A stretch of 64,000 nucleotides of DNA, from NCBI GenBank assembly GCA_041661275.1, contig JBAZUU010000002.1, positions 33,206 to 97,205 on the forward strand, written 5' to 3'. Positions 3,356-58,551 of this stretch are shown piece after piece; the stretch's first letter is position 1, and each line of letters begins with the position of its first letter. This DNA is from Parcubacteria group bacterium (lineage in GTDB: Bacteria > Patescibacteriota > Minisyncoccia > Moranbacterales > UBA2206). The notes beneath the pieces were generated by a model. The model was given only the letters and a program-made list of their open reading frames with translations, ran no database searches and was not told where the DNA came from. The position numbers and the translations under genes were made by a program.

Positions 3356-4069
3356 ATGGAAAAAGAACTGGAAAATGTGCCAGCTCACGTAGCGATCATT
3401 CCCGATGGCAACCGCCGCTGGGCGAGAGGCAAGGGAATGAAGCCGTGGGAAGGGCACGAAGTGGGAGCGAAAAATTTTGAAGTTCTGATAAAGCATTCGC
3501 TTAAAAAAGGCATAAAGTGTCTGACTATTTGGGGTTCGTCCATAGACAATCTGACTAAACGTCCATTTGATGAAAAGCGGGCCCTTCTTGATATATATAG
3601 TCGGTATTTTAAAAGGCTGTTGGATGGCAACGAGATCCATGAAAATGAAGTGCAAGTGAATGTCATTGGTCGGTGGGAAGAACAGTTTCCGGAGTCGCTC
3701 AAAAAAATAATCTATGAAGCCATGGAAAAAACCAGGCACTACAAGAAAAGGATGCTTAATTTTCTTTTGGCTTACAGTGGAACTGATGAAATGATTTTGG
3801 CAATCGAGTGTATTAGCAGCAAGTATGAAAAAGGCGTGAAAATTACGCCGGAGCTGATAAAGGAAAACCTTATGACCAGGGGTTTACCACCGGTCGACTA
3901 TTTGGTGCGTACCGGTGGAGAACCGCATAACAGCACAGGATTTATGATGTGGGATATCGCTGACGCTCAATACTATTTCTCGCCCGAACTTTTTCCGGAC
4001 TTTGATGACAAAAAATATGAAGAAGCGTTGGAAGAATACGCGAGACGTCAGAGGAGATTTGGAGGCTGA
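3356..4069 (+). CDS. uppS: Undecaprenyl diphosphate synthase (cis-prenyltransferase)
   Basis: HVAIIPDGNRRWA signature and overall UppS-like sequence. Confidence 0.9.
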   Translation: MEKELENVPAHVAIIPDGNRRWARGKGMKPWEGHEVGAKNFEVLIKHSLKKGIKCLTIWGSSIDNLTKRPFDEKRALLDIYSRYFKRLLDGNEIHENEVQVNVIGRWEEQFPESLKKIIYEAMEKTRHYKKRMLNFLLAYSGTDEMILAIECISSKYEKGVKITPELIKENLMTRGLPPVDYLVRTGGEPHNSTGFMMWDIADAQYYFSPELFPDFDDKKYEEALEEYARRQRRFGG

Positions 4070-7112: not shown

Positions 7113-7746
7113 CAAATTTATGAGTAAGCTGGTTAATGAGTTGATAAAACAGGGATATCTTAAGTCCGACCTGATTATTGACGCCTTTTCTGAGATCAGC
7201 CGGGTTGAATTTGTTCCGCATGAATTGGAAAAGGAAGCAGAAGCGAACATCGCCCTCCCTATCGGTTATGGGCAAACCATTTCTCAGCCATTGACAGTGG
7301 CGTTTATGCTGGAACTTCTTGATCCAAAAAGAAGCCAAAATGTCCTGGACATTGGTTCCGGTTCTGGCTGGACAACCGCCCTTCTTTGCTATATAGTTGG
7401 GCGACATGGAAAAGTTACGGCTATTGAGCGAAAAGAGGAGCTTAAAAAAATGGGAGAAAAAAATACCGATAAATATGGATATCTCCGAAACGGAAAAGAT
7501 GGCATCGCTGAATTTTTTGTAGGCGATGGGACAAAAGGATTCAAAAAAAACGCGCCGTATGATAGGATTCTTGTATCTGCTTCGACTGAATGCGTCCCCA
7601 ACGATCTCAAAGAACAATTAAAAGTTGGAGGAAAGATGGTTGTCCCGCTTCGTCATAGTATTTGGTATATGGAGAAGAAAGGGGATAATGATTTTTACAA
7701 AGAAGAATATCCTGGGTTTGAGTTTGTACCGCTCATCGAAGACTAA
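7066..7746 (+). CDS. pcm: Protein-L-isoaspartate O-methyltransferase
   Basis: GYGQTISQP, VLDIGSGSGW and PYDRI motifs. Probable true start at 7120 (MSKLVNEL). Confidence 0.8.
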   Translation: MEREPATLSFRLWGYNKFMSKLVNELIKQGYLKSDLIIDAFSEISRVEFVPHELEKEAEANIALPIGYGQTISQPLTVAFMLELLDPKRSQNVLDIGSGSGWTTALLCYIVGRHGKVTAIERKEELKKMGEKNTDKYGYLRNGKDGIAEFFVGDGTKGFKKNAPYDRILVSASTECVPNDLKEQLKVGGKMVVPLRHSIWYMEKKGDNDFYKEEYPGFEFVPLIED

Positions 7747-7854
7747 AATTTGTAATTAGAAATTTTTAATTTTTAATGAATTTCTAATTACTAAATTTTA
7801 AAATTTTAAATTCAATAAAAATTTCAAATTAAAAATTAAAAATTACGAGTAAGG

Positions 7855-8865
7855 ATGGCTAGGACACAAAAAATAATAATAGTATCAGTTTTGCTTCTAA
7901 TAGCTGTAGGAGCTTTTTTGTTTTTCCGCTACGAGGTCTATTATTCTCACGGCTCAAACAAGAAAACAGTGATTTTCAAGATAGAAAAAGGGGAGGGCAA
8001 TGGCCAGGTGGCCAAAAATCTCGAGCATGAAAAAATTGTTTCCGGGCAATGGTATTTCTACTATTATCTTCGCTCGCACGGAATGCTCAACAAGATCCTG
8101 CCTGGAGAATACGAGCTTTCCGGCAGCCTCACCATTCCGGAAATTGCCCAAACCATAACAACCAAGAAAGAAAAATTCGTCAAAGTCACTTTTCCAGAAG
8201 GCTGGGATTCGAAAAAGATGGCAGCGAGGCTTACGGAAAATAATCTTCCTGGCGATGAGTTTTTGAAATTAGTAAACGACCCAGGAGATCTCAAAAAAAG
8301 ATATGATTATCTTAATAACAACAATGTGACAACCCTGGAAGGTTTTCTTTTCCCTGATACTTATTTTTTCAAACCGGAAACTGAAGCCAAAAATATCGTC
8401 GGGCGGATGCTGGATACTTTTGACGAAAAAATAAATTCTGCAGGACTCCGAGGAAATTTGGCTGATAAAAATATAAAAATTAAAGACGCAGTTATTATGG
8501 CCAGTGTTTTGGAAGGGGAAGTGAAAAGCGAGGCGGATAGAAAAATAGTCAGCGGGATATTTTGGAAAAGGATCGATGCTGGAATGCCGCTACAAAGTTG
8601 CGCGACTCTGGCCTATATACTCGGAAAAAACAAAGATCAATATACGCTGGCCGACACCCAGGTGAAATCGCCGTATAACACATACACCAATAAAGGGCTT
8701 CCGCCCGGACCGATAAATAATCCGGGAATTATTACTCTTTCTGCCGCGGCCAATCCCCAAGATAGCCCGTATCTATTTTTTCTGACCGACCCGAAGACGG
8801 GGGAAACTATCTTTTCCAAAACTGCAGAAGAGCACAGTCAGAACAAGGCAAGAGTAGGGCTGTAA
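7855..8865 (+). CDS. mltG: Endolytic murein transglycosylase MltG (YceG-like)
   Basis: N-terminal transmembrane segment. FPEGW motif. YceG-like length and composition. Confidence 0.8.
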   Translation: MARTQKIIIVSVLLLIAVGAFLFFRYEVYYSHGSNKKTVIFKIEKGEGNGQVAKNLEHEKIVSGQWYFYYYLRSHGMLNKILPGEYELSGSLTIPEIAQTITTKKEKFVKVTFPEGWDSKKMAARLTENNLPGDEFLKLVNDPGDLKKRYDYLNNNNVTTLEGFLFPDTYFFKPETEAKNIVGRMLDTFDEKINSAGLRGNLADKNIKIKDAVIMASVLEGEVKSEADRKIVSGIFWKRIDAGMPLQSCATLAYILGKNKDQYTLADTQVKSPYNTYTNKGLPPGPINNPGIITLSAAANPQDSPYLFFLTDPKTGETIFSKTAEEHSQNKARVGL

Positions 8866-10372: not shown

Positions 10373-11836
10373 CTAATCAGTGGTTCTGAATTCCGTATAG
10401 TTATTCGCGTCCTCGCTTTTATTATACTCCTCAAACGAATCTTCTTCCATGCTATATTTTTCAACTATATCAGAACCCAGAATGAGTACCAAGTCTGCGG
10501 AAATATTTTCAGTGTTTTTTTTGTATATTTCCGGCATATTTTCTTTGGCGGCGGCGGGAATTTTTTTGACGATTTCATCCATCGTGAAAGGGATATTTTT
10601 TTTACCCAGATCGTAGCCAATTGTTACTGGCTCGACATATTTATCAAAATTTTTGATAACCGTCACGTTTTTATAATCAAAATTATCGTTCAATAGCTTT
10701 TTAATTTTCCCTTCGAGCGCGGAATCTCCACTTTTATTGATGATAACGATCGATGCGTCTTCCTTGGCGATTTCCTCTTTTCTCCGCTTGATTTTTTCCA
10801 GATCAAAGGCATTTTGCGCCAGTTCTTGCGTTTCACTCCAATTGCCCACGCGAGGAACCAGAATAAAAGCCCGCCCATTCGAAGTTTCAAGGTGGGAAAC
10901 TTTCAGGAGACTATCTTTGTTCCAGGCATCAATAACGACAGTATTCATATTATTGACATCCGTTTTTTTAGCCAGTTCGTAAAAACTTTCAAACTCCGCA
11001 GGAGTCACATCGGTCTTAATATTGTCACCCAGGGCGTTGAAAATTTCATTAACGGCAAAAAGATTTATCATCGTACCGGCCGAGAAAACCTTATTCTTGG
11101 TAGCTTGCATAATCTGTTGTTGACGTTTGGCCCGGCCGAAATCACCATCAGGATCATTGTGTCTTTCGCGAGCATATTTCAAAGCAATCACACCATCTAG
11201 TTGATGAAATCCCTTTTTTAGTTCAAAAGTTTCGTAGGAATAATTAGAGCCGGGATATCGAGCGTCATAGATATCACGTTCGTTCATAATGTTTATCCCG
11301 TCGACCGTGTCAATAATTTTGATAAATCCGTCAAAATTCAAAATTACATAATAGTTTATATCAAGCCCAGTAATATCAGAAACGATGGCCTTTACTGTTT
11401 CAGCGCTTTTTTTCTCATCGCCATTGGAATTATTAATGCCATATTGATAAGCGGAATTTATTTTCATTCCAATTCCAGATTCGGGAATCTTAACAAAAAG
11501 ATCACGTGGCAAAGATATGAATGCCGCCTGGTTGGTTTTAGGGTCAACGCTGGCTACCATGATAGTGTCAGTCAGATTTTGTCCGGGCTTGCCTTTGCCG
11601 GCAATTCCCAGAAGAAGAATATTTATCCGACCACCTTCGACACCTTTCAAATTCGGTTGATTACCAGAGGAAAGATTTTTTATAGTGTCCAAGAGGCTAT
11701 TTTTTTTGTCAAAAGTTATCTTATTGCCAACATAGTTAGTTTTATAGATAAAAAAAGACAGATAGCCAATACCAAAAAGTAAGAGAAGGGTGAAAAGAAT
11801 CAGAGAAAATTTAACTAAATAACTCTTTAATGGCAT
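10373..11836 (-). CDS. LytR-CpsA-Psr (LCP) family cell-envelope protein
   Basis: N-terminal transmembrane segment. LLLGIAGKG...NLTDTIMVASVDP and RDLFVKIP LCP core motifs. C-terminal LytR_C-like region. Confidence 0.8.
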   Translation of the reverse strand: MPLKSYLVKFSLILFTLLLLFGIGYLSFFIYKTNYVGNKITFDKKNSLLDTIKNLSSGNQPNLKGVEGGRINILLLGIAGKGKPGQNLTDTIMVASVDPKTNQAAFISLPRDLFVKIPESGIGMKINSAYQYGINNSNGDEKKSAETVKAIVSDITGLDINYYVILNFDGFIKIIDTVDGINIMNERDIYDARYPGSNYSYETFELKKGFHQLDGVIALKYARERHNDPDGDFGRAKRQQQIMQATKNKVFSAGTMINLFAVNEIFNALGDNIKTDVTPAEFESFYELAKKTDVNNMNTVVIDAWNKDSLLKVSHLETSNGRAFILVPRVGNWSETQELAQNAFDLEKIKRRKEEIAKEDASIVIINKSGDSALEGKIKKLLNDNFDYKNVTVIKNFDKYVEPVTIGYDLGKKNIPFTMDEIVKKIPAAAKENMPEIYKKNTENISADLVLILGSDIVEKYSMEEDSFEEYNKSEDANNYTEFRTTD

Positions 11837-12727: not shown

Positions 12728-12846
12728 ATGAAAAATGTAAATCTCAAAATGAAAAATGACAATGCAAAATAAAAAATTTATAAATTCCCATTTTTAATTT
12801 TAATATGTCATTTTGATTTTTACTTTTTTATTTTTGATTTATTTTT
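12728..12846. repeat. AT-rich inverted-repeat element (family aaatctcaaaatga..aaaatgacaa / ttgtcatttt)
   Basis: Left arm aaatgtaaatctcaaaatgaaaaatgacaatgcaaaat, right arm atgtcattttgatttttac. A related copy is at 22126-22228. Confidence 0.5.
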
Positions 12847-22125: not shown

Positions 22126-22228
22126 TGTAAAAATCAAAAATCAAATCTCAAAATGACAAATCAAAATTAAAAAATGATTAAAATTTTGCATTTTACATTG
22201 TCATTTTTATTTTTGAGATTTTCATTTT
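22126..22228. repeat. AT-rich inverted-repeat element (same family as 12728-12846)
   Basis: aatgtaaaaatcaaaaatcaaatctcaaaatgacaaatc / ttgtcatttttatttttgagattttc arms. Confidence 0.5.
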
Positions 22229-22239
22229 AATTTTTTATT

Positions 22240-25088: not shown

Positions 25089-26684
25089 GTGACCAAATCA
25101 AAAGTATTTTTTATTTTATCATTGGGTTTTATCGGGGGTGTTTTTAGTGCCTCTTTTTATTATCCCAGTCTGATTGATAATTATTATTTATTAATTTTAG
25201 TTTTGCTAGCTGTTATAATTCTAGCTATTTTTTACAAAAAACCGGCGATGATGGCCGGATTTTTTATATTATTTTTTATTTTTGGTATACACTTGACGGA
25301 AAAAAGACTGGAAGTGGTGAAAAATATAAAAGAAGATGATTTTTCGGGGGAGGTTGTGGTAATAGGCGAGCCAACAATATCAGGCAGGCAACAAAGAATG
25401 GTTGCTTTTCCCAAGATCCAACCTTTGGAGCAGCTCCCAAGGTTGAACCTTGGAACTGATTCAAGATTTTTAATAACCGCTGGAATTTTTCCTGAATATA
25501 AATATGGAGATGTTTTGAGAGTTGATTGTAAATTGGAAATTCCAAAGAATTTTGGACGAGGTCCTTCGACTGCGTCCGACTTGCGGTCGGACTCCGCTCA
25601 GGACGAATCCTCCGGATTCGATTACAAAATGTATCTAGCCAAAGACGGGATTTATTATCTTTGCAATAATCCTAAAATAGAAGATCTTAATAGAAACGAA
25701 GGAAATAAATTTTACGCGGCGATATTGAATATTAAAAATAAATTTAATGACAATATAATGAAGCTGATGCCGTCGCCGCAGTCGGGGTTGCTTTCGGGAT
25801 TATTAATCGGAGGATCGGGGCTACTTTCTAAAGACTATCAAAATTATTTTTCTCTCACCGGCACAACGCACATCGTAGCAGTGTCCGGATACAATGTAAC
25901 AATTGTCGCGGAATATCTGATGCTTCTGGGACTTTTTATCGGTCTCTGGCGGCAGCAAGCCTTTTGGTTTGCGGCTATTGGAATAATTTTTTTTGTAATT
26001 TTAACCGGCATGCCGTCTTCGGCCGTTCGGGCGGGAGTGATGGGGATTCTTCTCATTTGGGCGATGAAGAACGGGCGATTGGCTAACGCGCAAAATGCTA
26101 TCATATTTGCGGCGGGAGTTATGCTATTGGCAAATCCATTGTCATTGCGTTGGGATGTCGGATTTCAACTGTCATTTTTGGCGACACTGGGGATCGTTTA
26201 TGTTTATCCGATATTTAATGAATATCTTATGAAATTAGACGCGATGAATCGCGTCTCTACGATTGCGGAAATATTATTTCTTACACTATCGGCGCAGGTT
26301 TTTGTTTTGCCGATATTGATGATTAATTTTGGAAAATTGTCTCTCATTTCACCTCTGGCTAACGTCCTGATTTTGCCCATTATTCCGCTCACGATGCTCA
26401 CCGGATTTATAGCTATCCTTTTTAGTTTTATCATTCCGCCCATCGGTCAAGTCTTCGCCTGGTTGGCCTTTTTGCCGTTGAAATATGAAACGATGGTAAT
26501 AAAATTTTTGGCCAGTCTAAAATATTCCTCGGTGGAAATTTCCAATTTTTCGTGGATTGGAGTGGTTTTGTGGTATATAATTTTAGGAGGAGGGGTAGTT
26601 TTGATTAAAAAGAAAATAACAAATCCTCCTCTCCCCTTGGGAGAGGATGCCGAGTCTTCGAGGCAGGAGAGGGCTCCTAATTAA
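25089..26684 (+). CDS. comEC: ComEC/Rec2 competence channel protein (DUF4131 + competence domains)
   Basis: Multi-pass membrane protein. GYNVTIVAEYLM and competence-domain similarity. Last 19 codons and the stop are contributed by repeat element C. Confidence 0.8.
   Translation: MTKSKVFFILSLGFIGGVFSASFYYPSLIDNYYLLILVLLAVIILAIFYKKPAMMAGFFILFFIFGIHLTEKRLEVVKNIKEDDFSGEVVVIGEPTISGRQQRMVAFPKIQPLEQLPRLNLGTDSRFLITAGIFPEYKYGDVLRVDCKLEIPKNFGRGPSTASDLRSDSAQDESSGFDYKMYLAKDGIYYLCNNPKIEDLNRNEGNKFYAAILNIKNKFNDNIMKLMPSPQSGLLSGLLIGGSGLLSKDYQNYFSLTGTTHIVAVSGYNVTIVAEYLMLLGLFIGLWRQQAFWFAAIGIIFFVILTGMPSSAVRAGVMGILLIWAMKNGRLANAQNAIIFAAGVMLLANPLSLRWDVGFQLSFLATLGIVYVYPIFNEYLMKLDAMNRVSTIAEILFLTLSAQVFVLPILMINFGKLSLISPLANVLILPIIPLTMLTGFIAILFSFIIPPIGQVFAWLAFLPLKYETMVIKFLASLKYSSVEISNFSWIGVVLWYIILGGGVVLIKKKITNPPLPLGEDAESSRQERAPN
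25437..25453. repeat. REP-like palindrome CCAAGGTTGAACCTTGG inside the comEC reading frame
   Basis: Identical palindrome flanks the RAYT gene at 49526-49550 and 50232-50258. Here it encodes ...LPRLNLGT... in frame. Confidence 0.7.
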
Positions 26685-26980: not shown

Positions 26981-27811
26981 ATGCCTAATCGAAAAGCCCT
27001 ATATTTAATCCTCCTGACTCTTGCTATCATTGCCGCTATTTTGGCGGGGATTATTTGGTATCAGCAAAAACAAGAAATGAAAGTGGTTTTTTTTGATGTG
27101 GGACAAGGGGATTCCATTCTGATTGAGCAGGGAAGTAATCAGATTTTGATTGATGGTGGACCGGACGGAAAAAAAGTAATGGAAAAATTGGGCGAATATG
27201 TACCGTTTTGGGATAGGAATATAGAAGTGGTGATAGCGACTCATCCGGACGAAGACCATATTGACGGGCTCATTGATGTCATGGAAAATTACAATATTGG
27301 TGAAATAATCGATAATGGAGCTGATGTAGACAGTCAGGTTTATAAAAAATATCAGGACGTAATCTCGCAAAAAAATATCAATCGTATCGAGGGAAAATCG
27401 GGAATGGAAATAAAACTGGCGGATAATACAAAACTTTCTATTTTATCTCCTGATGGAACGCAAGACAAAAATAACCCGAAAGATACAAATCTTTCGAGCA
27501 TCGTTTCTAAACTAACTTTCGGTGAAAATAGTTTTTTATTTACTGGCGATTTTCCGACAGAAGGCGAGCAAGATTTATTTAGTAAAAATATCGATTTACG
27601 CGCGCGAGTGCTGAAAGTAGCTCATCATGGGTCAAAATATGCAACAAGTGACGAATTTCTAGATAAAGTTAACCCACAAGAGGCAGTAATATCCGTTGGG
27701 AAAAACAATAGATATGGACACCCGGCAGAGGATGTGATAAGCAGATTGGAAGCGCATAAAATTAATATAAAAAGAACCGATGTATCCGGAGATATCGAGT
27801 ATCAATTTTAA
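26981..27811 (+). CDS. Metallo-beta-lactamase fold protein, ComEC C-terminal-like (ComEC/Rec2-related)
   Basis: N-terminal transmembrane helix. FFDVGQGDSILIE, HPDEDHIDGL, LKVAHHGS MBL motifs. Confidence 0.75.
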   Translation: MPNRKALYLILLTLAIIAAILAGIIWYQQKQEMKVVFFDVGQGDSILIEQGSNQILIDGGPDGKKVMEKLGEYVPFWDRNIEVVIATHPDEDHIDGLIDVMENYNIGEIIDNGADVDSQVYKKYQDVISQKNINRIEGKSGMEIKLADNTKLSILSPDGTQDKNNPKDTNLSSIVSKLTFGENSFLFTGDFPTEGEQDLFSKNIDLRARVLKVAHHGSKYATSDEFLDKVNPQEAVISVGKNNRYGHPAEDVISRLEAHKINIKRTDVSGDIEYQF

Positions 27812-28337: not shown

Positions 28338-28835
28338 ATGGCCAACCGACATCTTTCACGCTCAATCGCCATGCAATCACTCTATGAGTGGGATTTTAAC
28401 GGACGCAAAAAGGAAAGTGTTGATGAGATAGTTGAAAAGAATATCAAAGAATTCGGACCAGGAATGGACGACACTAGTTTCGTAGAAAACCTTGTTAAAA
28501 GTACCATCAAAAATCAGGACAAAATTGATCCACTTATTGAAAAATGCGCTCCGGAATGGCCACTAGACCAAGTGACGATCGTTGACCGGAATATTTTGCG
28601 TTTAGGGATAAATGAACTGCTTTTTGGCAACTATGAAGAAGTGCCTCCTAAGGTGGCGATAAACGAAGCAATCGAGCTGGCCAAATCCTTTGGTGGGGAG
28701 AGTTCCGGAAGATTTGTCAATGGAGTTCTGGGAACGATATACAGGGAGTTGGGCGAGCCGATGAAGGATGATGACTCGAAAAAGCGCAAGGAAATAAGAG
28801 AGAAGGAAAAGGAGAATAAAAAAGAAGAAAAATAA
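28338..28835 (+). CDS. nusB: Transcription antitermination factor NusB
   Basis: [13 protein letters not shown]..., [28 protein letters not shown]-rich C-terminal tail. Confidence 0.85.
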
Positions 28836-28945
28836 TTAATTTTAAAATCACAAATTCAAAATTACAAATCCCAAATAAATTAAAAAATTACAATATTAAA
28901 ATTCAAAACAGTTTATAATTTTGGATTTTAGCCATTGTAATTTAT

Positions 28946-29665
28946 TTGGAATTTGAGATTTTGTATTTGGTGCTTATGGCATTTATGACATCCGATCTAT
29001 CAAAAAAACTGGGAGTAAAATTCAATAATCCCGAACTTTTGCAACAAGCCGTAACTCATCGTTCATACCTTAATGAGCATCGGAGTTATAAACTTGATCA
29101 TAATGAGCGTCTTGAATTCCTGGGAGACGCGGTTTTGGAGTTGGCAGTGACGGAATATCTATATAACAATTATGAAAATCCGGAAGGCGAACTGACCAAC
29201 TGGCGAGCAGCTCTTGTTAATGGAGAAATGCTGGCCAAAATTTCCAAAAAATTGGGCGTGGAAGAATTTCTTATGATGAGTCGTGGAGAAACCAAAGATA
29301 CCGGGCGCGCGCGCCAATACCTTTTGGCCAATGCTTTTGAAGCCATCACCGGTGCTATTTATCTTGACTCCGGTTATGACACGGCCAAGGATTTTATTAT
29401 GAAAAACGTAGTAATCTATCTTGACGAAATAATCGAGAAAAAACTATTCCTAGATCCCAAAAGTCGTTTTCAGGAGGAAGCGCAGGACAAAGTCGGTACT
29501 ACACCGTCCTATCGCGTTTTGGAAGAAGCGGGACCTGATCACGACAAGAAATTTGTCGTTGGAGTATTTTTAGACTCGGAAATGATCGCCAAGGGCGAGG
29601 GGCCGTCCAAGCAGGAAGCTCAAAGGCAGGCGGCAGAGAAGGGATTGGAAGTGAAGAGTTGGTAA
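28946..29665 (+). CDS. rnc: Ribonuclease III
   Basis: ERLEFLGDAVLELAV RNase III signature plus a C-terminal dsRBD. Confidence 0.85.
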   Translation: MEFEILYLVLMAFMTSDLSKKLGVKFNNPELLQQAVTHRSYLNEHRSYKLDHNERLEFLGDAVLELAVTEYLYNNYENPEGELTNWRAALVNGEMLAKISKKLGVEEFLMMSRGETKDTGRARQYLLANAFEAITGAIYLDSGYDTAKDFIMKNVVIYLDEIIEKKLFLDPKSRFQEEAQDKVGTTPSYRVLEEAGPDHDKKFVVGVFLDSEMIAKGEGPSKQEAQRQAAEKGLEVKSW

Positions 29666-29678
29666 ACAAAAACAAAAA

Positions 29679-32048
29679 ATGTTTCTCAAACGCCTAGAAA
29701 TTAACGGCTTCAAATCATTTGCCTCCAAAACCACTTTGGATTTTTTGATTGACTCTGAAAACCACAAGACTCATGGGATAACAGTAGTGGTCGGACCAAA
29801 TGGAAGTGGCAAATCCAACATTGCCGATTCTTTGCGTTGGGTGATGGGGGAGCAATCAATGAAACATCTGCGCGGAAAAAAATCAGAGGACATTATTTTT
29901 GCCGGAAGTGGAAAAAAAGCGCGTTTAGGGAGTGCCAAAGTAACTTTATATCTAGACAATTGTGACCAAAAAATTCCCATTGATTTTTCCGAAGTTACCA
30001 TTGCCAGAAAAATTAACCGTTCTGGCGAGGGAGAATATTTTATCAATGGTTCGCGTGTCCGTCTTCAGGATATTACCGATCTTTTGGCCAAAGCTGGCGT
30101 AGGAAAAGAAAGTTATGCCATTATCAACCAGGGAATGGCCGATGCTATTCTTGCCGCCTCGCCACTGGAACGCCGGACGATCATTGAAGATGCAGCCGGA
30201 GTGAAACAATATCAGATCAAAAAAGAAAGGTCTATCCGAAAACTGGATTCAACTCGGGAAAATTTGGAGCGAGTGAAAAGTTTAGTAGAAGAAATAAAGC
30301 CGCATCTTCGAATGCTCAAAAGACAATCGGACAAAGCGGCTAAGAGTGAGGAAATATTTACGAGTCTTAAAGAAAAGCAGATAAAACTTTTCAGTCATCT
30401 TTGGCATAATTTTCGAGACGAGAAACAAATTTTTGATGAAAAAAAAGACGAATTGGGACGAGAGATGATGAATATGCAACGCGAAGTAGATAAACTTTTA
30501 GACGCAATAAACGCGGAAGAAAAGAACAATAAGGAAAATGAGACTCTCGCCGGATTGGAAAAAGATTCTAGGGAAGCTCGGGTGAAATATAATACTCTCG
30601 AGCGAGAGCTGATCATAACAGAGGGACGATTGGAAATTGAAAAAGAGAAGCAAGCTAGCCGGCAAGTCTTGGAGGAGATAAAAATAACCAGTATTCCTGT
30701 CGATTCTCTTTATGTCAAAAAAATAGTGGAAGAAATCCGGATCGACCAGGAAAGGTTGATAGAAAAATTACAAAAAGTGGAAAAGATTGAAGAACTCCAA
30801 GATATCAAAGAATTTGCCCGAGCGATCCAACAAAGACTATTTGAGCTCAAAGCAGATATTGAAAAAGGGAAAAAGGAGCAGAATTCCGAGAGCGAGGCTC
30901 TCGGAGCCGCTCCAAGAGCCTCGCTCTCGGATGCTTCTGAAATTAAGAAAGACAACTCGGTAATTTTAGAATTGCAAAATAAATTAGTCCAGTTGAGAAA
31001 GGATATAAAGGATCTGGAAAACAAAATTAGAGAAATCGATGAATCGAGAGAAAAAGAAATAACGGAAGACAGAAATCGACGCCAGAAATTTTTTGAGATT
31101 GAAAGAAAAATGAGGACAAAGCAGGATGAACTGGGAAAACTGAAAGATCAATTCAATGATGCCAAAATTTCTTTGGCGCGCGTGGAAGTGCGAGAGGAAG
31201 ATTTGAGGACGGATGTAAAATCAGCGCTCAAAATAGAACCCGAGGAACTTTCAAAAAATAATGAAGAAATCAATCGGGAAGAGTTGGAGCGAGAAGTGGC
31301 GCGTCTGAAAATCCAACTGGAACAGATCGGCGGAATAGATCCGATGGTGATAGATGAATATAGGGAAACTCAAAAACGTTTTGATTTTCTCTCCACTGAA
31401 TCAGAAGATCTGGAAAAAGCTATTGGTAGTCTTCGGGAGATAATAAAAGAAATGGAGCAAAAAATTTCTAAGGAATTTGAGCTGGCTTTCACCGAGATCA
31501 ACAAAGAATTCACCAAATACTTCAAAATAATTTTTGGTGGCGGCGCAGCGCATCTGACAAAAGTTAAGGTAAAAAATCGGAAGTTTAAGATTAAAAAAAC
31601 CGAAGAAGAATCAGATTTAGAAACTGAAAATATAGAGCAAAACGGTGATGACAATGTAGAAGATGTGGAAAATGAAAAGGATGAGATCGGAATCGATATC
31701 TTTGCTTGTCCGCCAGGAAAAAGAATAACCAGCCATGCTATGCTTTCGGGAGGTGAACGGTCACTTACTTCTCTGGCTCTTCTCTTTGCTGTCATTGCCC
31801 ACAACCCACCACCATTCTCTATTTTGGATGAAGTAGAGGCGGCACTTGATGAAGCTAATTCCAGACGTTTTGGCCGGATACTTTCAGAGCTTTCCAAAAA
31901 CACTCAATTTGTCATTATCACTCATAACCGTGAAACCATGCGCCAGGCGTCGATGCTCTATGGGGTGACGATGGGGGAAGACGGAATTTCCAAACTTCTT
32001 TCGGTGAGATTAGACCAAGTAGGACAAGGAGGGAAAATTATAAAATAA
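29679..32048 (+). CDS. smc: SMC-like chromosome segregation ATPase (short form, 789 aa)
   Basis: N-terminal Walker A GPNGSGKSN, long coiled coil, C-terminal LSGGERSLTSLALLFA signature and Walker B ILDEVEAALD. Confidence 0.8.
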   Translation: MFLKRLEINGFKSFASKTTLDFLIDSENHKTHGITVVVGPNGSGKSNIADSLRWVMGEQSMKHLRGKKSEDIIFAGSGKKARLGSAKVTLYLDNCDQKIPIDFSEVTIARKINRSGEGEYFINGSRVRLQDITDLLAKAGVGKESYAIINQGMADAILAASPLERRTIIEDAAGVKQYQIKKERSIRKLDSTRENLERVKSLVEEIKPHLRMLKRQSDKAAKSEEIFTSLKEKQIKLFSHLWHNFRDEKQIFDEKKDELGREMMNMQREVDKLLDAINAEEKNNKENETLAGLEKDSREARVKYNTLERELIITEGRLEIEKEKQASRQVLEEIKITSIPVDSLYVKKIVEEIRIDQERLIEKLQKVEKIEELQDIKEFARAIQQRLFELKADIEKGKKEQNSESEALGAAPRASLSDASEIKKDNSVILELQNKLVQLRKDIKDLENKIREIDESREKEITEDRNRRQKFFEIERKMRTKQDELGKLKDQFNDAKISLARVEVREEDLRTDVKSALKIEPEELSKNNEEINREELEREVARLKIQLEQIGGIDPMVIDEYRETQKRFDFLSTESEDLEKAIGSLREIIKEMEQKISKEFELAFTEINKEFTKYFKIIFGGGAAHLTKVKVKNRKFKIKKTEEESDLETENIEQNGDDNVEDVENEKDEIGIDIFACPPGKRITSHAMLSGGERSLTSLALLFAVIAHNPPPFSILDEVEAALDEANSRRFGRILSELSKNTQFVIITHNRETMRQASMLYGVTMGEDGISKLLSVRLDQVGQGGKIIK
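30887..30930. repeat. Palindromic element (family 2: GAGCGAGGCTCTCGGAGCCGCTCCNAGAGCCTCGCTC) in frame inside smc
   Basis: cgagagcgaggctctcggagccgctccaagagcctcgctctcgg encodes SEALGAAPRASLS. A second copy is intergenic at 33731-33773. Confidence 0.7.
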
Positions 32049-33713
32049 ATGTTCTCTCGTAATAAAAACTTTCTATTTAAAGCACTTATAATCCTGATAA
32101 TTGCAGGCGGTGTTTTTATTCGTTTCTGGCATCTCGATTCCATTCCGCCCGGCATTCATTATGATGAAGCGTATAATGGAGTGAATGCGCTTACTGCCAA
32201 TGAAACGCACAACTGGAAAATATTTTATGAAGACAACACGGGTCGCGAGGGATTGCATATCAACGTCATTGCTTTTTTTATTTCCATTTTTGGTAATAAT
32301 AATTTTGGCCTAAGATTTGCCAATGCTCTTTGGGGGTCGCTCACTCTCATCGGTTTTTATTTTTTGCTAAAAGAACTGAAATTTTCTCATCTTTCCCGGG
32401 CTATCGGAACCTTTATGATTGCCACTTCGTTTTGGCATCTGGTTTTTTCGCGCACCGCCTATCGCGCTATCATGGTTCCGCTCATCTTAGTCTGGCTTTT
32501 CTATTTTTTCTGGAAAGCGGTGGACACACCTAAGTACCGAACCCGATACTTCATCATTTCCGGACTTCTTTTGGGAATAGGGTTTCACACTTACATTTCT
32601 TTCCGCATTGCCCCTGTCATAATTCTGGCGGTTGCCCTTTCTTTTGTTCTCACAAGACCTGGTTTTCTGGCGCGCCATTGGAAATCCGGTCTTATTTTTG
32701 CCATCGCCGCGCTTCTGGCTGCTCTTCCTATTTTTATTTTCTTTTCTGACCATTTCAAAGATTTCGTTTCCAGAAGTGAAGCCGTTTCTGTTTTTAACGC
32801 GCCCAATATGACTTTTTGGCAAGCATTTGGAAAGAGTCTCGGCAGGCATCTCTGGGCATTTTTTGTTATCGGTGATCATAACTATAGGCATAATTTTAAC
32901 AACCAGCCGCTTCTTCCGGCGGCCTGGTCAGTGCTTTTTGCCATCGGATTTATTATTTCCATAAGAGAAATTGGCAAAACGGCGATAAATTTAATAAAAA
33001 ATAGCCGGGAAAATCCAGGAGAAAAATCGATCCTGGCCACCAGATGGTTCAATGTTTCGGTACTGGCCCAGTCTATTTTTTGGATAATGATCTTGCCGGG
33101 AACTTTCAGTATCGAAGGGATTCCGCATTCACTGCGTATCATCGGCACTATTCCGGCCGTGTTTATTTTTTGCGTTTTGCCTTTTGAGTATATTACTAGT
33201 CTTTTTACCGCTACCAAGGAAATTTCTATATCCGCCACCACTCCATCAAGAGATAGTCGATCACTTACAGTCTTTATCGGCCTCATCGCTATGGTGGTTT
33301 TGGGCGGACTGTCGCAGGTATATATTTATTTCAATCTTTGGGCAACCGATCTGGCCACTATGGGCGCTTATGAACGGAAACTTTATGATTTCGGCCTTAT
33401 GACCAAAGATCTTCCGGTGCGCAACAATAACTATATAATGACTGCCTGGAATACTGCCATTTATTCCGACAGACATCAGTCCAGTCTCAAAACTTTGGAA
33501 TATTTGGCATATCCTAACATCAAAAAATATCTATTTTATAGGCCGACCGATGGAATCGGACAGATAAATTGCGATGATCCGCAAATAGTATTTTTGGAAT
33601 CAGATCAATGGCTTCGCGATCAATACAAAAATAATTGTCCGAGTTTACAACAAAAAAGATATCTTTATAATAATGGGAAATATACTTTTTGGGTGATGAG
33701 TAATAATCCCTAG
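32049..33713 (+). CDS. GT-C fold glycosyltransferase (ArnT/PMT family 39-like)
   Basis: Multi-pass membrane N-terminal half with DEAYN-like loop (HYDEAYNGV). Dolichyl-phosphate-mannose/ArnT-like architecture. Confidence 0.65.
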   Translation: MFSRNKNFLFKALIILIIAGGVFIRFWHLDSIPPGIHYDEAYNGVNALTANETHNWKIFYEDNTGREGLHINVIAFFISIFGNNNFGLRFANALWGSLTLIGFYFLLKELKFSHLSRAIGTFMIATSFWHLVFSRTAYRAIMVPLILVWLFYFFWKAVDTPKYRTRYFIISGLLLGIGFHTYISFRIAPVIILAVALSFVLTRPGFLARHWKSGLIFAIAALLAALPIFIFFSDHFKDFVSRSEAVSVFNAPNMTFWQAFGKSLGRHLWAFFVIGDHNYRHNFNNQPLLPAAWSVLFAIGFIISIREIGKTAINLIKNSRENPGEKSILATRWFNVSVLAQSIFWIMILPGTFSIEGIPHSLRIIGTIPAVFIFCVLPFEYITSLFTATKEISISATTPSRDSRSLTVFIGLIAMVVLGGLSQVYIYFNLWATDLATMGAYERKLYDFGLMTKDLPVRNNNYIMTAWNTAIYSDRHQSSLKTLEYLAYPNIKKYLFYRPTDGIGQINCDDPQIVFLESDQWLRDQYKNNCPSLQQKRYLYNNGKYTFWVMSNNP

Positions 33714-33730
33714 CAGAAATATTTGTTCTC

Positions 33731-33773
33731 CTGGAGCGAGGCTCTCGGAGCCGCTCCCAGAGCCTCGCTCCAG
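33731..33773. repeat. Family-2 palindromic element, intergenic copy
   Basis: ctggagcgaggctctcggagccgctcccagagcctcgctccag. Confidence 0.7.
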
Positions 33774-33783
33774 GACGGGGTTC

Positions 33784-33812
33784 TTGACATAGAAAAGATG
33801 CGTGTGTATACT
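33784..33812 (+). promoter_or_regulatory. Sigma70-type promoter (TTGACA, 17-nt spacer, TATACT) upstream of rpsP
   Basis: ttgaca at 33784-33789 and tatact at 33807-33812, spacer exactly 17 nt. Confidence 0.55.
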
Positions 33813-49525: not shown

Positions 49526-49550
49526 ACTTCCAAGGTTGAACCTTGGAAGT
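49526..49550. repeat. REP-like palindrome ACTTCCAAGGTTGAACCTTGGAAGT (left flank of RAYT)
   Basis: Perfect 25-nt palindrome directly after the murF stop. Confidence 0.8.
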
Positions 49551-49564
49551 GAGAATTTTATTAT

Positions 49565-50233
49565 ATGCAAAGAAAAATACCATTTATCAATGGGGAGTTT
49601 CATCATATTTATAATCGCGGAGTAGATAAACGCGAAATTTTTCTAGATAGAGATGATTATGAAAGGTTTTTTATTTCTATGTATTTTTTAAATACCAAGG
49701 AAAATGATCTGATAAGCAAGTGGTTAGATTTTAAGAAATTTAATCCCAAGGTTCAACCTTGGGAGTTTAAAAAAATAAAGTCGGAAGATAAACTCGTTGA
49801 GCTTAATTGTTATTGTCTAAATGATAATCATTACCACTTTATTATAAAACAACTTCGAGATAGAGGTATTGAAATATTTATGCAGAAACTGGGAACGAGT
49901 TACACTATGTATTTTAATAAGAAGTATGACAGAAGCGGATCATTGCTTCAGGGAAGGTTTAAGTCGGCTTATATTGACTCCGATGATAAATTGCTCTATT
50001 TGTCAGCGTATGTGAATAAAAATCATTCTATCCATGGGTATAAAGAGGGTGATAATTGGCAATATTCAAGTTTGAATGAATACCTGAATAAAAGCAAAAC
50101 TTTTTGTCTTTGCAATAAAAGTCCGATCATTGATCAATTCAGGGACATAAAGGAGTATCAAAACTATATAAATGTGAATGCGCTACAGATGAGAGAAAGT
50201 AAAGAAATGGAAAAAATGGCATTGGAATTTTAA
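49565..50233 (+). mobile_element. IS200/IS605-like HUH-Y1 transposase of REP-associated type (RAYT)
   Basis: YHIYNRG first-strand motif, HuH motif NDNHYHFII, Tyr motif LYLSAYVNKNH (compare E. coli TnpA-REP DYIYINPVKHG). Flanked on both sides by the same palindrome. Confidence 0.75.
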
Positions 50234-50258
50234 CTTCCAAGGTTGAACCTTGGAAGTT
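50232..50258. repeat. REP-like palindrome AACTTCCAAGGTTGAACCTTGGAAGTT (right flank of RAYT)
   Basis: Perfect palindrome. Immediately followed by a diverged copy of the murF 3' end (50259-50313). Confidence 0.8.
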
Positions 50259-58125: not shown

Positions 58126-58551
58126 TTGTTCACCTTCCTTTCTAGAGGATCCGCCTAATTTTTTTCAAGCAAAGCTCGAAAAAATTTTGGCGGAAAAATA
58201 AATTATTAAGGTGCTTACGTTGAAGCTTGCGGCTCTTGCGAGCGTCTCATATTAAATTCTAACAAAATCTGAACTGACGTCAACTAGACAAGCGGGTTAA
58301 AATAGGGCTTAATATGGGACATAGCACAGAATATTGGCGCCTAGGAAAGTTCCAGCTTCTTCGGAGTAATAATTTAAAATTTGAAATTTATAATTTGAAA
58401 TGAATTTGAAATGATTTAATTTTAAATTTAAAATTAAGATTTGATTTAAAATTATAAATTCTAAATTTAAAATTATTTTGAAATATTTTTTTCTGGTTGT
58501 GGTATTATCTTATGTTTTAGTTCTTTTTGAAAAAATATTTTTGAAAAAAAG

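Follow-up and report, generated by a model that had tools for sequence, protein, structure and literature searches.

A GC-rich palindromic doublet in frame in the apex loop of a hingeless SMC protein from a Moranbacteria genome, and its intergenic twin

The stretch of DNA analysed here (64,000 nt of contig JBAZUU010000002.1, referred to as the window, whose positions are used throughout) comes from a Moranbacteria/Parcubacteria metagenome-assembled genome of the candidate phyla radiation (CPR) with a G+C content of ~40%. Its smc gene contains a 47-nt palindromic element that is translated in frame as part of the SMC protein, and a near-identical twin of this element is located in the intergenic DNA ahead of rpsP. 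We propose that the element is probably a small, non-autonomous, GC-rich selfish palindrome of the same kind as the dimers of repetitive extragenic palindromes (REPs) and the Rickettsia palindromic elements (RPEs), and that it is tolerated in a protein loop. Most likely, the palindrome belongs to a known general kind which has not yet been described in this bacterial group.

A 37-mer quoted in the first-pass annotation of the window, GAGCGAGGCTCTCGGAGCCGCTCCAAGAGCCTCGCTC, matches exactly at 30890–30926 and with one mismatch at 33734–33770, the number of matches expected by chance being 0.00 (100 shuffles). The annotation had described a perfect palindrome of 44 bp at 30887–30930. The palindrome is there, but it is longer (47 nt, 30885–30931) and not perfect: the two 23-nt arms (30885–30907 and 30909–30931) are complementary at 22 of 23 positions and enclose one unpaired base at the centre, in copy 1 as well as in copy 2. 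The two bases that fail to pair are C18 and A30 in copy 1, and C and C in copy 2. The G+C content of both copies is 68–70%, compared with ~40% for the genome, and both are predicted to fold as RNA on either strand with energies of −43 to −50 kcal/mol (z = −6 to −7.6). The 47-mer is built as an inverted doublet of a 21-nt mini-hairpin, in which the first unit, TCCGAGAG-CGAGG-CTCTCGGA, is followed by the spacer GCCGC and the mirror unit TCCAAGAG-CCTCG-CTCTCGGA; the left stem of the second unit reads TCCaAGAG in copy 1. Each unit consists of an 8-bp stem and a 5-nt loop, with the loop of the second unit being the complement of the first, and the whole doublet folds as one hairpin of 22 bp. Since the identical sequence is found in independent ENA and Logan assemblies, the element is not an assembly artefact; a diverged copy is present in one JGI sample.

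Copy 1 is in frame in the ORF (open reading frame) for 789 aa, as originally annotated, and encodes SESEALGAAPRASLS as residues 403–417. The peptide is the same when read from the opposite strand, which is true as claimed but is a trivial consequence of the palindromic sequence. The near-identical twin was also placed correctly, between a glycosyltransferase gene and the rpsP promoter. This copy 2 is identical to copy 1 at 42 of 47 positions and lies 2.8 kb from it, both copies being in one operon; it begins 15 nt after the stop codon of the PMT/PMT_2 gene and ends 8 nt before the −35 box of a promoter-like site (TTGACA-17-TATACT) ahead of rpsP. With a near-identical copy in non-coding DNA, the element is discrete repeated DNA and not a sequence driven by the protein.

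The twins differ at five positions, four of which form two compensatory pairs in the outer stem (4/44 and 5/43; GA/TC versus TG/CA), while the fifth is position 30, which is always unpaired. These differences show that the long hairpin, rather than the unit hairpin, appears to have been preserved in copy 2. By the compensatory changes between the copies, the palindromic symmetry is likewise shown to have been, as far as the sequences can tell, actively kept. The covariation statistics on three sequences (the two copies in the window and one from a relative) are not significant alone, as the observed value is attained in 60 of 500 shuffles.

The host protein scores 646 bits against the TIGR02168 profile (SMC_prok_B; cut-off 567 bits). 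One of its two matched stretches, residues 2–469, aligns to positions 1–463 of the 1181 in the profile, and its head matches the SMC head of B. subtilis (5xg3) with E = 2e-111. The SMC_hinge domain of Pfam has no match in this protein, and alignments to full-length SMCs in the PDB skip roughly residues 450–840. The AlphaFold model of the protein is of low confidence (predicted local distance difference test, pLDDT, 65; predicted template modelling score, pTM, 0.34) and was used for the secondary structure and the disordered apex only. In this model, helix extends from residue 176 to 619 with only short interruptions, strands are lacking between residues 128 and 622, and disorder is predicted at residues 398–425 (pLDDT <50), between helices 370–398 and 423–517. 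Given this disordered stretch and the unmatched hinge, the insert is placed at the apex of a coiled coil without a hinge. The length of 789 aa had been noted as unusually short for an SMC. The length itself is correct, but it is not unusual in this clade. Of the 120 best SMC matches, 119 are 750–816 aa long, and of the 150 top-ranking representatives at 50% identity, 72 have 700–820 aa, 68 have 821–930 aa and none exceeds 1100 aa. On these lengths and profile matches, the short SMC, predicted to be hingeless, is the rule in the clade. Full-text literature searches gave no description of a hingeless SMC within the library searched.

Twenty-two SMC orthologues were aligned with the window protein, and 120 apex segments were inspected. 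The insert is located in a segment that directly follows a conserved motif, DIEKGKKE, and is hypervariable in sequence and length. The closest relative covering the region (L053, protein P0009, 88% identity) shares the element at the corresponding place, with 43 of 47 nt being identical, and the SMC copy is absent from three further relatives, L055, L054 and L064 (87%, 82% and 81% identity). Alignment of orthologues thus bears out the insertion reported in the first pass: it is missing at 81–87% identity and so is not common to all orthologues. The apex sequence of L055 (DSSAASLEKP) was considered as a decayed remnant of the element and rejected, because its Ser codons come from different codon classes. 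Between the window and L053, smc is 81% identical overall, 58% identical at third codon positions and 72–80% identical in the 150-nt flanks of the insert, versus 91% for the palindrome itself (12 of 15 at third codon positions). One of the four nucleotide changes in the SMC copy replaces L with P. Shared with L053, and 91% identical there versus 72–80% in the flanks, the element is old and better kept in its nucleotides than its surroundings.

The intergenic site of copy 2 varies among the relatives as well. It is empty in L064, where the sequence reads TAG-CCGAGAG-TTGACA, and is occupied in L054 by an unrelated 36-nt palindrome; the flanks of the site and the rpsP promoter are conserved in both. 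On this comparison, the differences at the intergenic site are discrete gains or losses of palindromic units. The 7-mer CCGAGAG of the empty site (L064, ~4050–4065) equals positions 2–8 of the SMC copy, which is either a deletion footprint or chance.

It was found that the SMC apex of other Moranbacteria accommodates other palindromes. These are GTAG-tagged, of the type GTAGAGACG...CGTCTCTAC (also written GTAGAGACG...CGTCTC(TAC)), and encode VETPHRDVS, VETSRCLVST or VDTRQCLVST, peptides which are present in ~15 of 120 orthologues. Three of them were verified in the DNA (L056, ~11210–11300; L057; L058, 3177–3205). Four more SMC orthologues have a GC-rich apex insert encoding PARIATQSVAGGE. Several similar palindromes were seen elsewhere. 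L056 has a GTAG-type palindrome in frame inside a RAYT-like gene too (7850–7877, peptide RRDALQCVST). A perfect 40-nt palindrome, CTTAGGCTCTAAGAGCCCAATTGGGCTCTTAGAGCCTAAG, is in frame in a gene of the metallo-beta-lactamase fold in L054 (3329–3368), with a net gain of 11 aa, and is missing from the orthologue in the window (26981–27811). A 16-nt palindrome, TCCGCC(A/G)GCTGGCGGA, is intergenic in L054 (~7895–7915, in the smc–PMT spacer) and recurs in L059 (~11090–11110, protein P0057), where it is translated in frame as PPAGG within a second variable SMC loop.

Scans with 11-nt arms returned low-GC matches of the same design as the element, (stem)-CGAGG-(stem), a short spacer and (stem)-CCTCG-(stem), in other CPR lineages. 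The set is defined by the arms fixed in the search pattern. Its named hosts are candidate division WWE3, Paceibacterota and Saccharibacteria, and the JGI metagenome contigs with doublets are CPR-like by composition and shared elements only. High-GC pattern matches (Streptomyces and others) were set aside as chance terminator-like hairpins, and the low-GC matches in CPR were kept. In these doublets, the loop and the closing pairs GAG/CTC are conserved and the outer stems co-vary (CTTGGGAG/CTCCCAAG, AGGAG/CTCCT, AGAG/CTCT). Of 17 distinct sites, 16 fall within ORFs (counted from stop to stop) that are 150 codons or longer. The seven hosts verified with Pfam are ThrRS, SecA, AspRS, the NAD-dependent DNA ligase LigA, a GT1 glycosyltransferase, ComEC and an O-antigen ligase. 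The encoded peptides (e.g. ERGSDGKEPRS and SEALTEKEPRS) come from only two reading frames of the arms, out of three possible ones.

The window also has a Y1 transposase gene of the RAYT type (IS200-like), which a scan of the first 20 small ORFs did not yield and which was later found by tblastn. The gene is flanked by the palindrome TTCCAAGGTTGAACCTTGGAA at 49528–49548 and 50235–50255, and a diverged copy is located inside its own ORF (49744–49764). A covariance model was built from three copies of the 47-nt element (two in the window and that of L053). Its only other match in the window is a doublet in frame in ComEC, with the layout [21]-GCAGC-[21], whose units are the RAYT-flanking palindrome with the unit ends TCC...GGA. 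The ComEC doublet and the element have in common the unit length of 21, the TCC...GGA ends, the GCNGC spacer and the total length of 47, and the centre motif GGAGCNGCTCC is found in the window only at the two copies of the element and at the ComEC doublet. The two families thus share their architecture and not the unit sequence, and this is the sole, weak link between the element and the transposase. The earlier assertion that the element is distinct from the RAYT-flanking family is right for the unit sequence and too strong where it implies full independence, as the 47-nt doublet in ComEC has the same architecture. The same ComEC loop holds three in-frame palindromes in three lineages: the RAYT-REP doublet in the window (25409–25455), a perfect 37-nt palindrome in L054 (453–489) and a CGAGG-loop doublet in L017 (1165–1205).

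Taken further, these observations suggest that hairpin doublets translated within proteins form a hitherto undescribed family spanning the CPR, with a conserved CGAGG/CCTCG loop closed by GAG/CTC and co-varying outer stems, and residing mainly in essential genes (ThrRS, SecA, AspRS, LigA, ComEC, SMC). Such a family would be the Patescibacteria counterpart of the Rickettsia RPEs and might be moved by RAYT-type Y1 transposases. A few protein loops, such as the hingeless SMC apex and a loop of ComEC, would repeatedly receive palindromes of several unrelated families. We put this broader proposal forward tentatively, as one with nearly as much chance of being right as of being wrong.

Which known repeats does the element resemble? 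Intragenic in-frame REPs, a minority of the copies, are documented in flexible linkers and loops, often in genes of DNA replication or repair (PMC3733652). REPs tagged with GTAG or CGTC (Di Nocera et al. 2013) are mostly inverted dimers able to fold into a long hairpin and lie mostly just downstream of ORFs (PMC3733652). The CGTC-tagged ones, including RPE-4 and RPE-6, have a stem of 8–9 bp and a loop of 4–5 nt, and are mainly inverted dimers, some of which are in frame (PMC3733652). The element matches the geometry of this family, with its 8-bp stem, 5-nt loop, inverted dimer and in-frame position in smc. Like a GTAG-tagged REP, it is a short, GC-rich, imperfect palindrome with the capacity to form a stable stem-loop (the 22-bp hairpin with the folding energies given above). 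Such REPs are dispersed in tens to thousands of copies per genome, and the ~75 kb covered here contain two copies of the element. The phyla surveyed for GTAG/CGTC dimers exclude CPR/Patescibacteria, and the related CPR elements, different from these dimers, are almost all intragenic. The systems formed by REPs or REPINs together with a RAYT (REPtrons) are similar in having an inverted doublet, and the window contains a RAYT-type Y1 gene with single palindromic units, whose REP forms the 47-nt doublet of identical design in ComEC. The difference is that the RAYT gene is flanked by its own palindrome and not by the 47-nt element, and that the GTAG guide motif is missing.

The classical RPEs (Ogata et al. 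2000, 2002, as summarised in PMC10969869) are repeats of ~100–150 bp inserted in frame in many unrelated genes of Rickettsia, with family-specific peptides. They resemble the present case as palindromes that extend conserved housekeeping proteins in a reduced genome: they are read in frame, are translated as extra loop peptides with which the fold and function of the protein are compatible, and occur in non-coding DNA too. The present element differs in its length of 47 nt and its phylum, and one coding insertion of the exact element was seen; measured against the RPE-1 type, it falls short in length, while CGAGG-loop doublets occur in at least seven gene families in other CPR. Classification as a miniature inverted-repeat transposable element was rejected, since no target-site duplication and no shared flanks were found. 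In yeast mitochondria, GC-rich palindromic mobile clusters are scattered in an AT-rich genome and include in-frame insertions such as those in VAR1. The likeness lies in GC-rich palindromes in an AT-rich genome, and the difference is that these clusters belong to a eukaryotic organelle and are unrelated in sequence. Full-text literature searches for in-frame palindromic elements in CPR found nothing within the library searched.

Several points weigh against a selfish palindrome and have to be set beside this evidence. Only two copies were found in ~75 kb of the source genome (the window plus 10.8 kb of contig flanks), the additional 10.8 kb containing no extra copy, and the covariance model found no further copy, related elements apart, in the 317 kb of loci to which it was applied. 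In the first-pass annotation, the element was assigned to a second REP-like family; a repeated DNA element in smc is indeed present, but with two copies in ~75 kb a multi-copy family is not demonstrated for this genome, and the element may be unique to the two sites. An exact 24-mer has 0 matches in the GTDB species genomes, which means that the source species is not in that collection. Degenerate arm patterns gave no copy with the centre of the window's element in GTDB genomes, JGI metagenomes or viral contigs. When the encoded peptides in all frames were searched against 5.8 billion protein clusters, 13 proteins shared 5-residue words and none reached E <= 10; as HMMER statistics are unsuited to so short a query, this negative result carries little weight. 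As to the hallmarks of mobility, no direct repeat that could be a target-site duplication flanks either copy, and the flanks are mutually dissimilar. A CGTC motif is absent from the ends of the element, only copy 2, and not copy 1 or that of L053, having a GACG straddling its right end; neither GTAG nor CTAC stands beside any of the three copies. The palindrome flanking the RAYT gene differs in sequence from the element. Judging by its presence in a relative at 81% nucleotide identity, the SMC copy is old, with no sign of recent mobility. Finally, L054 has an unrelated palindrome at the intergenic position, and this could reflect a functional requirement for a hairpin at that position.

Could the twins simply be the result of a local one-off duplication? 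One copy would have been templated from the other by gene conversion or template switching while a site prone to hairpins was replicated or repaired, without a family or a transposase, and the resemblance to the CPR doublets would be convergence of GAG/CTC-rich stems. The copy number of exactly two in ~75 kb, both within one operon, agrees with this, as do the pattern scans of genomes, metagenomes and viral contigs, in which no other copy with the same centre was found, and the lack of both a target-site duplication and a tag. On the other hand, the two compensatory pairs and the one loop position by which the twins differ mean that neither is a fresh copy of the other, and the SMC copy is older than the split from L053. 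Doublets with the same loop and closing pairs are found in several CPR phyla and many genes, and the one in ComEC repeats the 21+5+21 design. We therefore consider a local duplication to be unlikely.

Alternatively, the copies could be functional RNA hairpins of the rnc–smc–PMT operon, which serve RNase III processing or stabilise the 3′ end, one copy tuning the smc mRNA and the other marking the 3′ end of the operon and insulating the rpsP promoter. The gene for RNase III, rnc, immediately precedes smc, which in turn is followed without a gap by the PMT gene. The stems of ~22 bp correspond to roughly two helical turns, and a stem length of ~22 bp has been linked to the length of RNase III substrates. 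The better conservation of the palindrome relative to its coding flanks fits this proposal too, and so does the hairpin of unrelated sequence at the intergenic position in L054. However, the intergenic site of L064 has no hairpin, and none is present in smc of L054, L055, L064 and most of the 120 orthologues. In these genomes, rnc and smc are generally neighbours, whether palindromes are present or not, and sister elements reside in many unrelated genes. There is no U-tract after copy 2 (the next letters are CGGGGTTCTTGACA) and the terminator scan makes no call, for which reasons an intrinsic (Rho-independent) terminator was rejected. Rfam has no family for the element, with only a sub-threshold, noise-like match of miRNA type. 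Taken together, a primary role as RNA hairpins seems to us quite improbable. The inserted peptide itself might have a function, such as making a contact at the apex in place of the missing hinge, with the DNA palindrome being incidental; its position exactly where the hinge would be and its retention in two lineages are compatible with this, but the same DNA in non-coding sequence, the hypervariability of the loop in length and sequence across 120 orthologues, its predicted disorder, and the change of L into P among only four changes relative to L053 make it very hard to believe.

For a selfish palindrome of the REP-dimer or RPE kind, the following course of events can be imagined. A copy would have landed in frame in the SMC apex loop before the lineages of the window and L053 diverged. 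The unstructured apex of the hingeless SMC, presumably free in length and sequence, could then carry the 15 extra translated residues; that these are tolerated follows from the in-frame position in a conserved ORF and from the variable, disordered loop. A second copy would have settled at the 3′ end of the same operon, in the usual position of REP-type elements, where its role is probably confined to that of a 3′ hairpin in the RNA or of a transcription buffer before the rpsP promoter. Copying most likely proceeds through a hairpin intermediate of single-stranded DNA, and a Y1/HUH transposase, such as the RAYT-type one encoded in the window, is a candidate for handling this hairpin.

The features discussed are collected in Table 1. 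Two further observations concern the remainder of the window. The segment 34304–34418, upstream of rplJ, matches the Rfam family L10_leader (RF00557) at exactly the gathering score (44 bits). Long AT-rich inverted repeats are present in several spacers (7745–7844, 12746–12839, 22128–22229, 28834–28946 and 58368–58477), that between nusB and rnc included; they carry motifs of A/T runs such as AAATTTTAAATT and form a separate repeat class.

Table 1. Positions of the palindromic elements and associated features (window coordinates unless a contig is named)
Feature	Position	Strand	Basis or remark
Copy 1, palindromic doublet in smc	30885..30931	.	Repeat match, folding, in-frame reading
Copy 2, intergenic	33729..33775	.	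Repeat match, folding, comparison with copy 1
smc, 789 aa, hingeless form	29679..32048	+	TIGR02168 profile, hinge part unmatched
Apex-loop coding region (residues 398–425), hypervariable among orthologues	30870..30953	+	Alignment, AlphaFold model
rnc (RNase III), 13 nt upstream of smc	28946..29665	+	Probably same transcription unit
PMT/PMT_2-family glycosyltransferase; start abuts smc stop, copy 2 in 3′ flank	32049..33713	+	Pfam
Promoter-like TTGACA-17-TATACT for rpsP	33784..33812	+	Conserved (L054, L064)
47-nt doublet in frame in ComEC, units as the RAYT-flanking palindrome	25409..25455	.	Covariance model, 29.7 bits
Y1 (IS200-like, RAYT-type) transposase gene	49565..50233	+	Pfam Y1_Tnp, 25.5 bits; tblastn with relatives' Y1 proteins
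CGAGG-loop doublets in frame in ThrRS, SecA, AspRS, LigA, GT1 and O-antigen ligase	Contigs L007, L014, L025, L021, L013 and L051		

The SMC hinge is generally held necessary for dimerisation, and the SMC of this clade, which lacks it, merits attention for this reason. Several palindrome families have hit the same SMC and ComEC loops in different lineages. Such inserts inflate the apparent divergence of proteins and create spurious GC-rich 'motifs' in CPR proteins, and at the same time they mark loops that are structurally unconstrained. If elements of this kind behave in CPR/Patescibacteria as REP dimers and RPEs do elsewhere, selfish hairpin DNA would colonise protein loops even in very small, gene-dense genomes.

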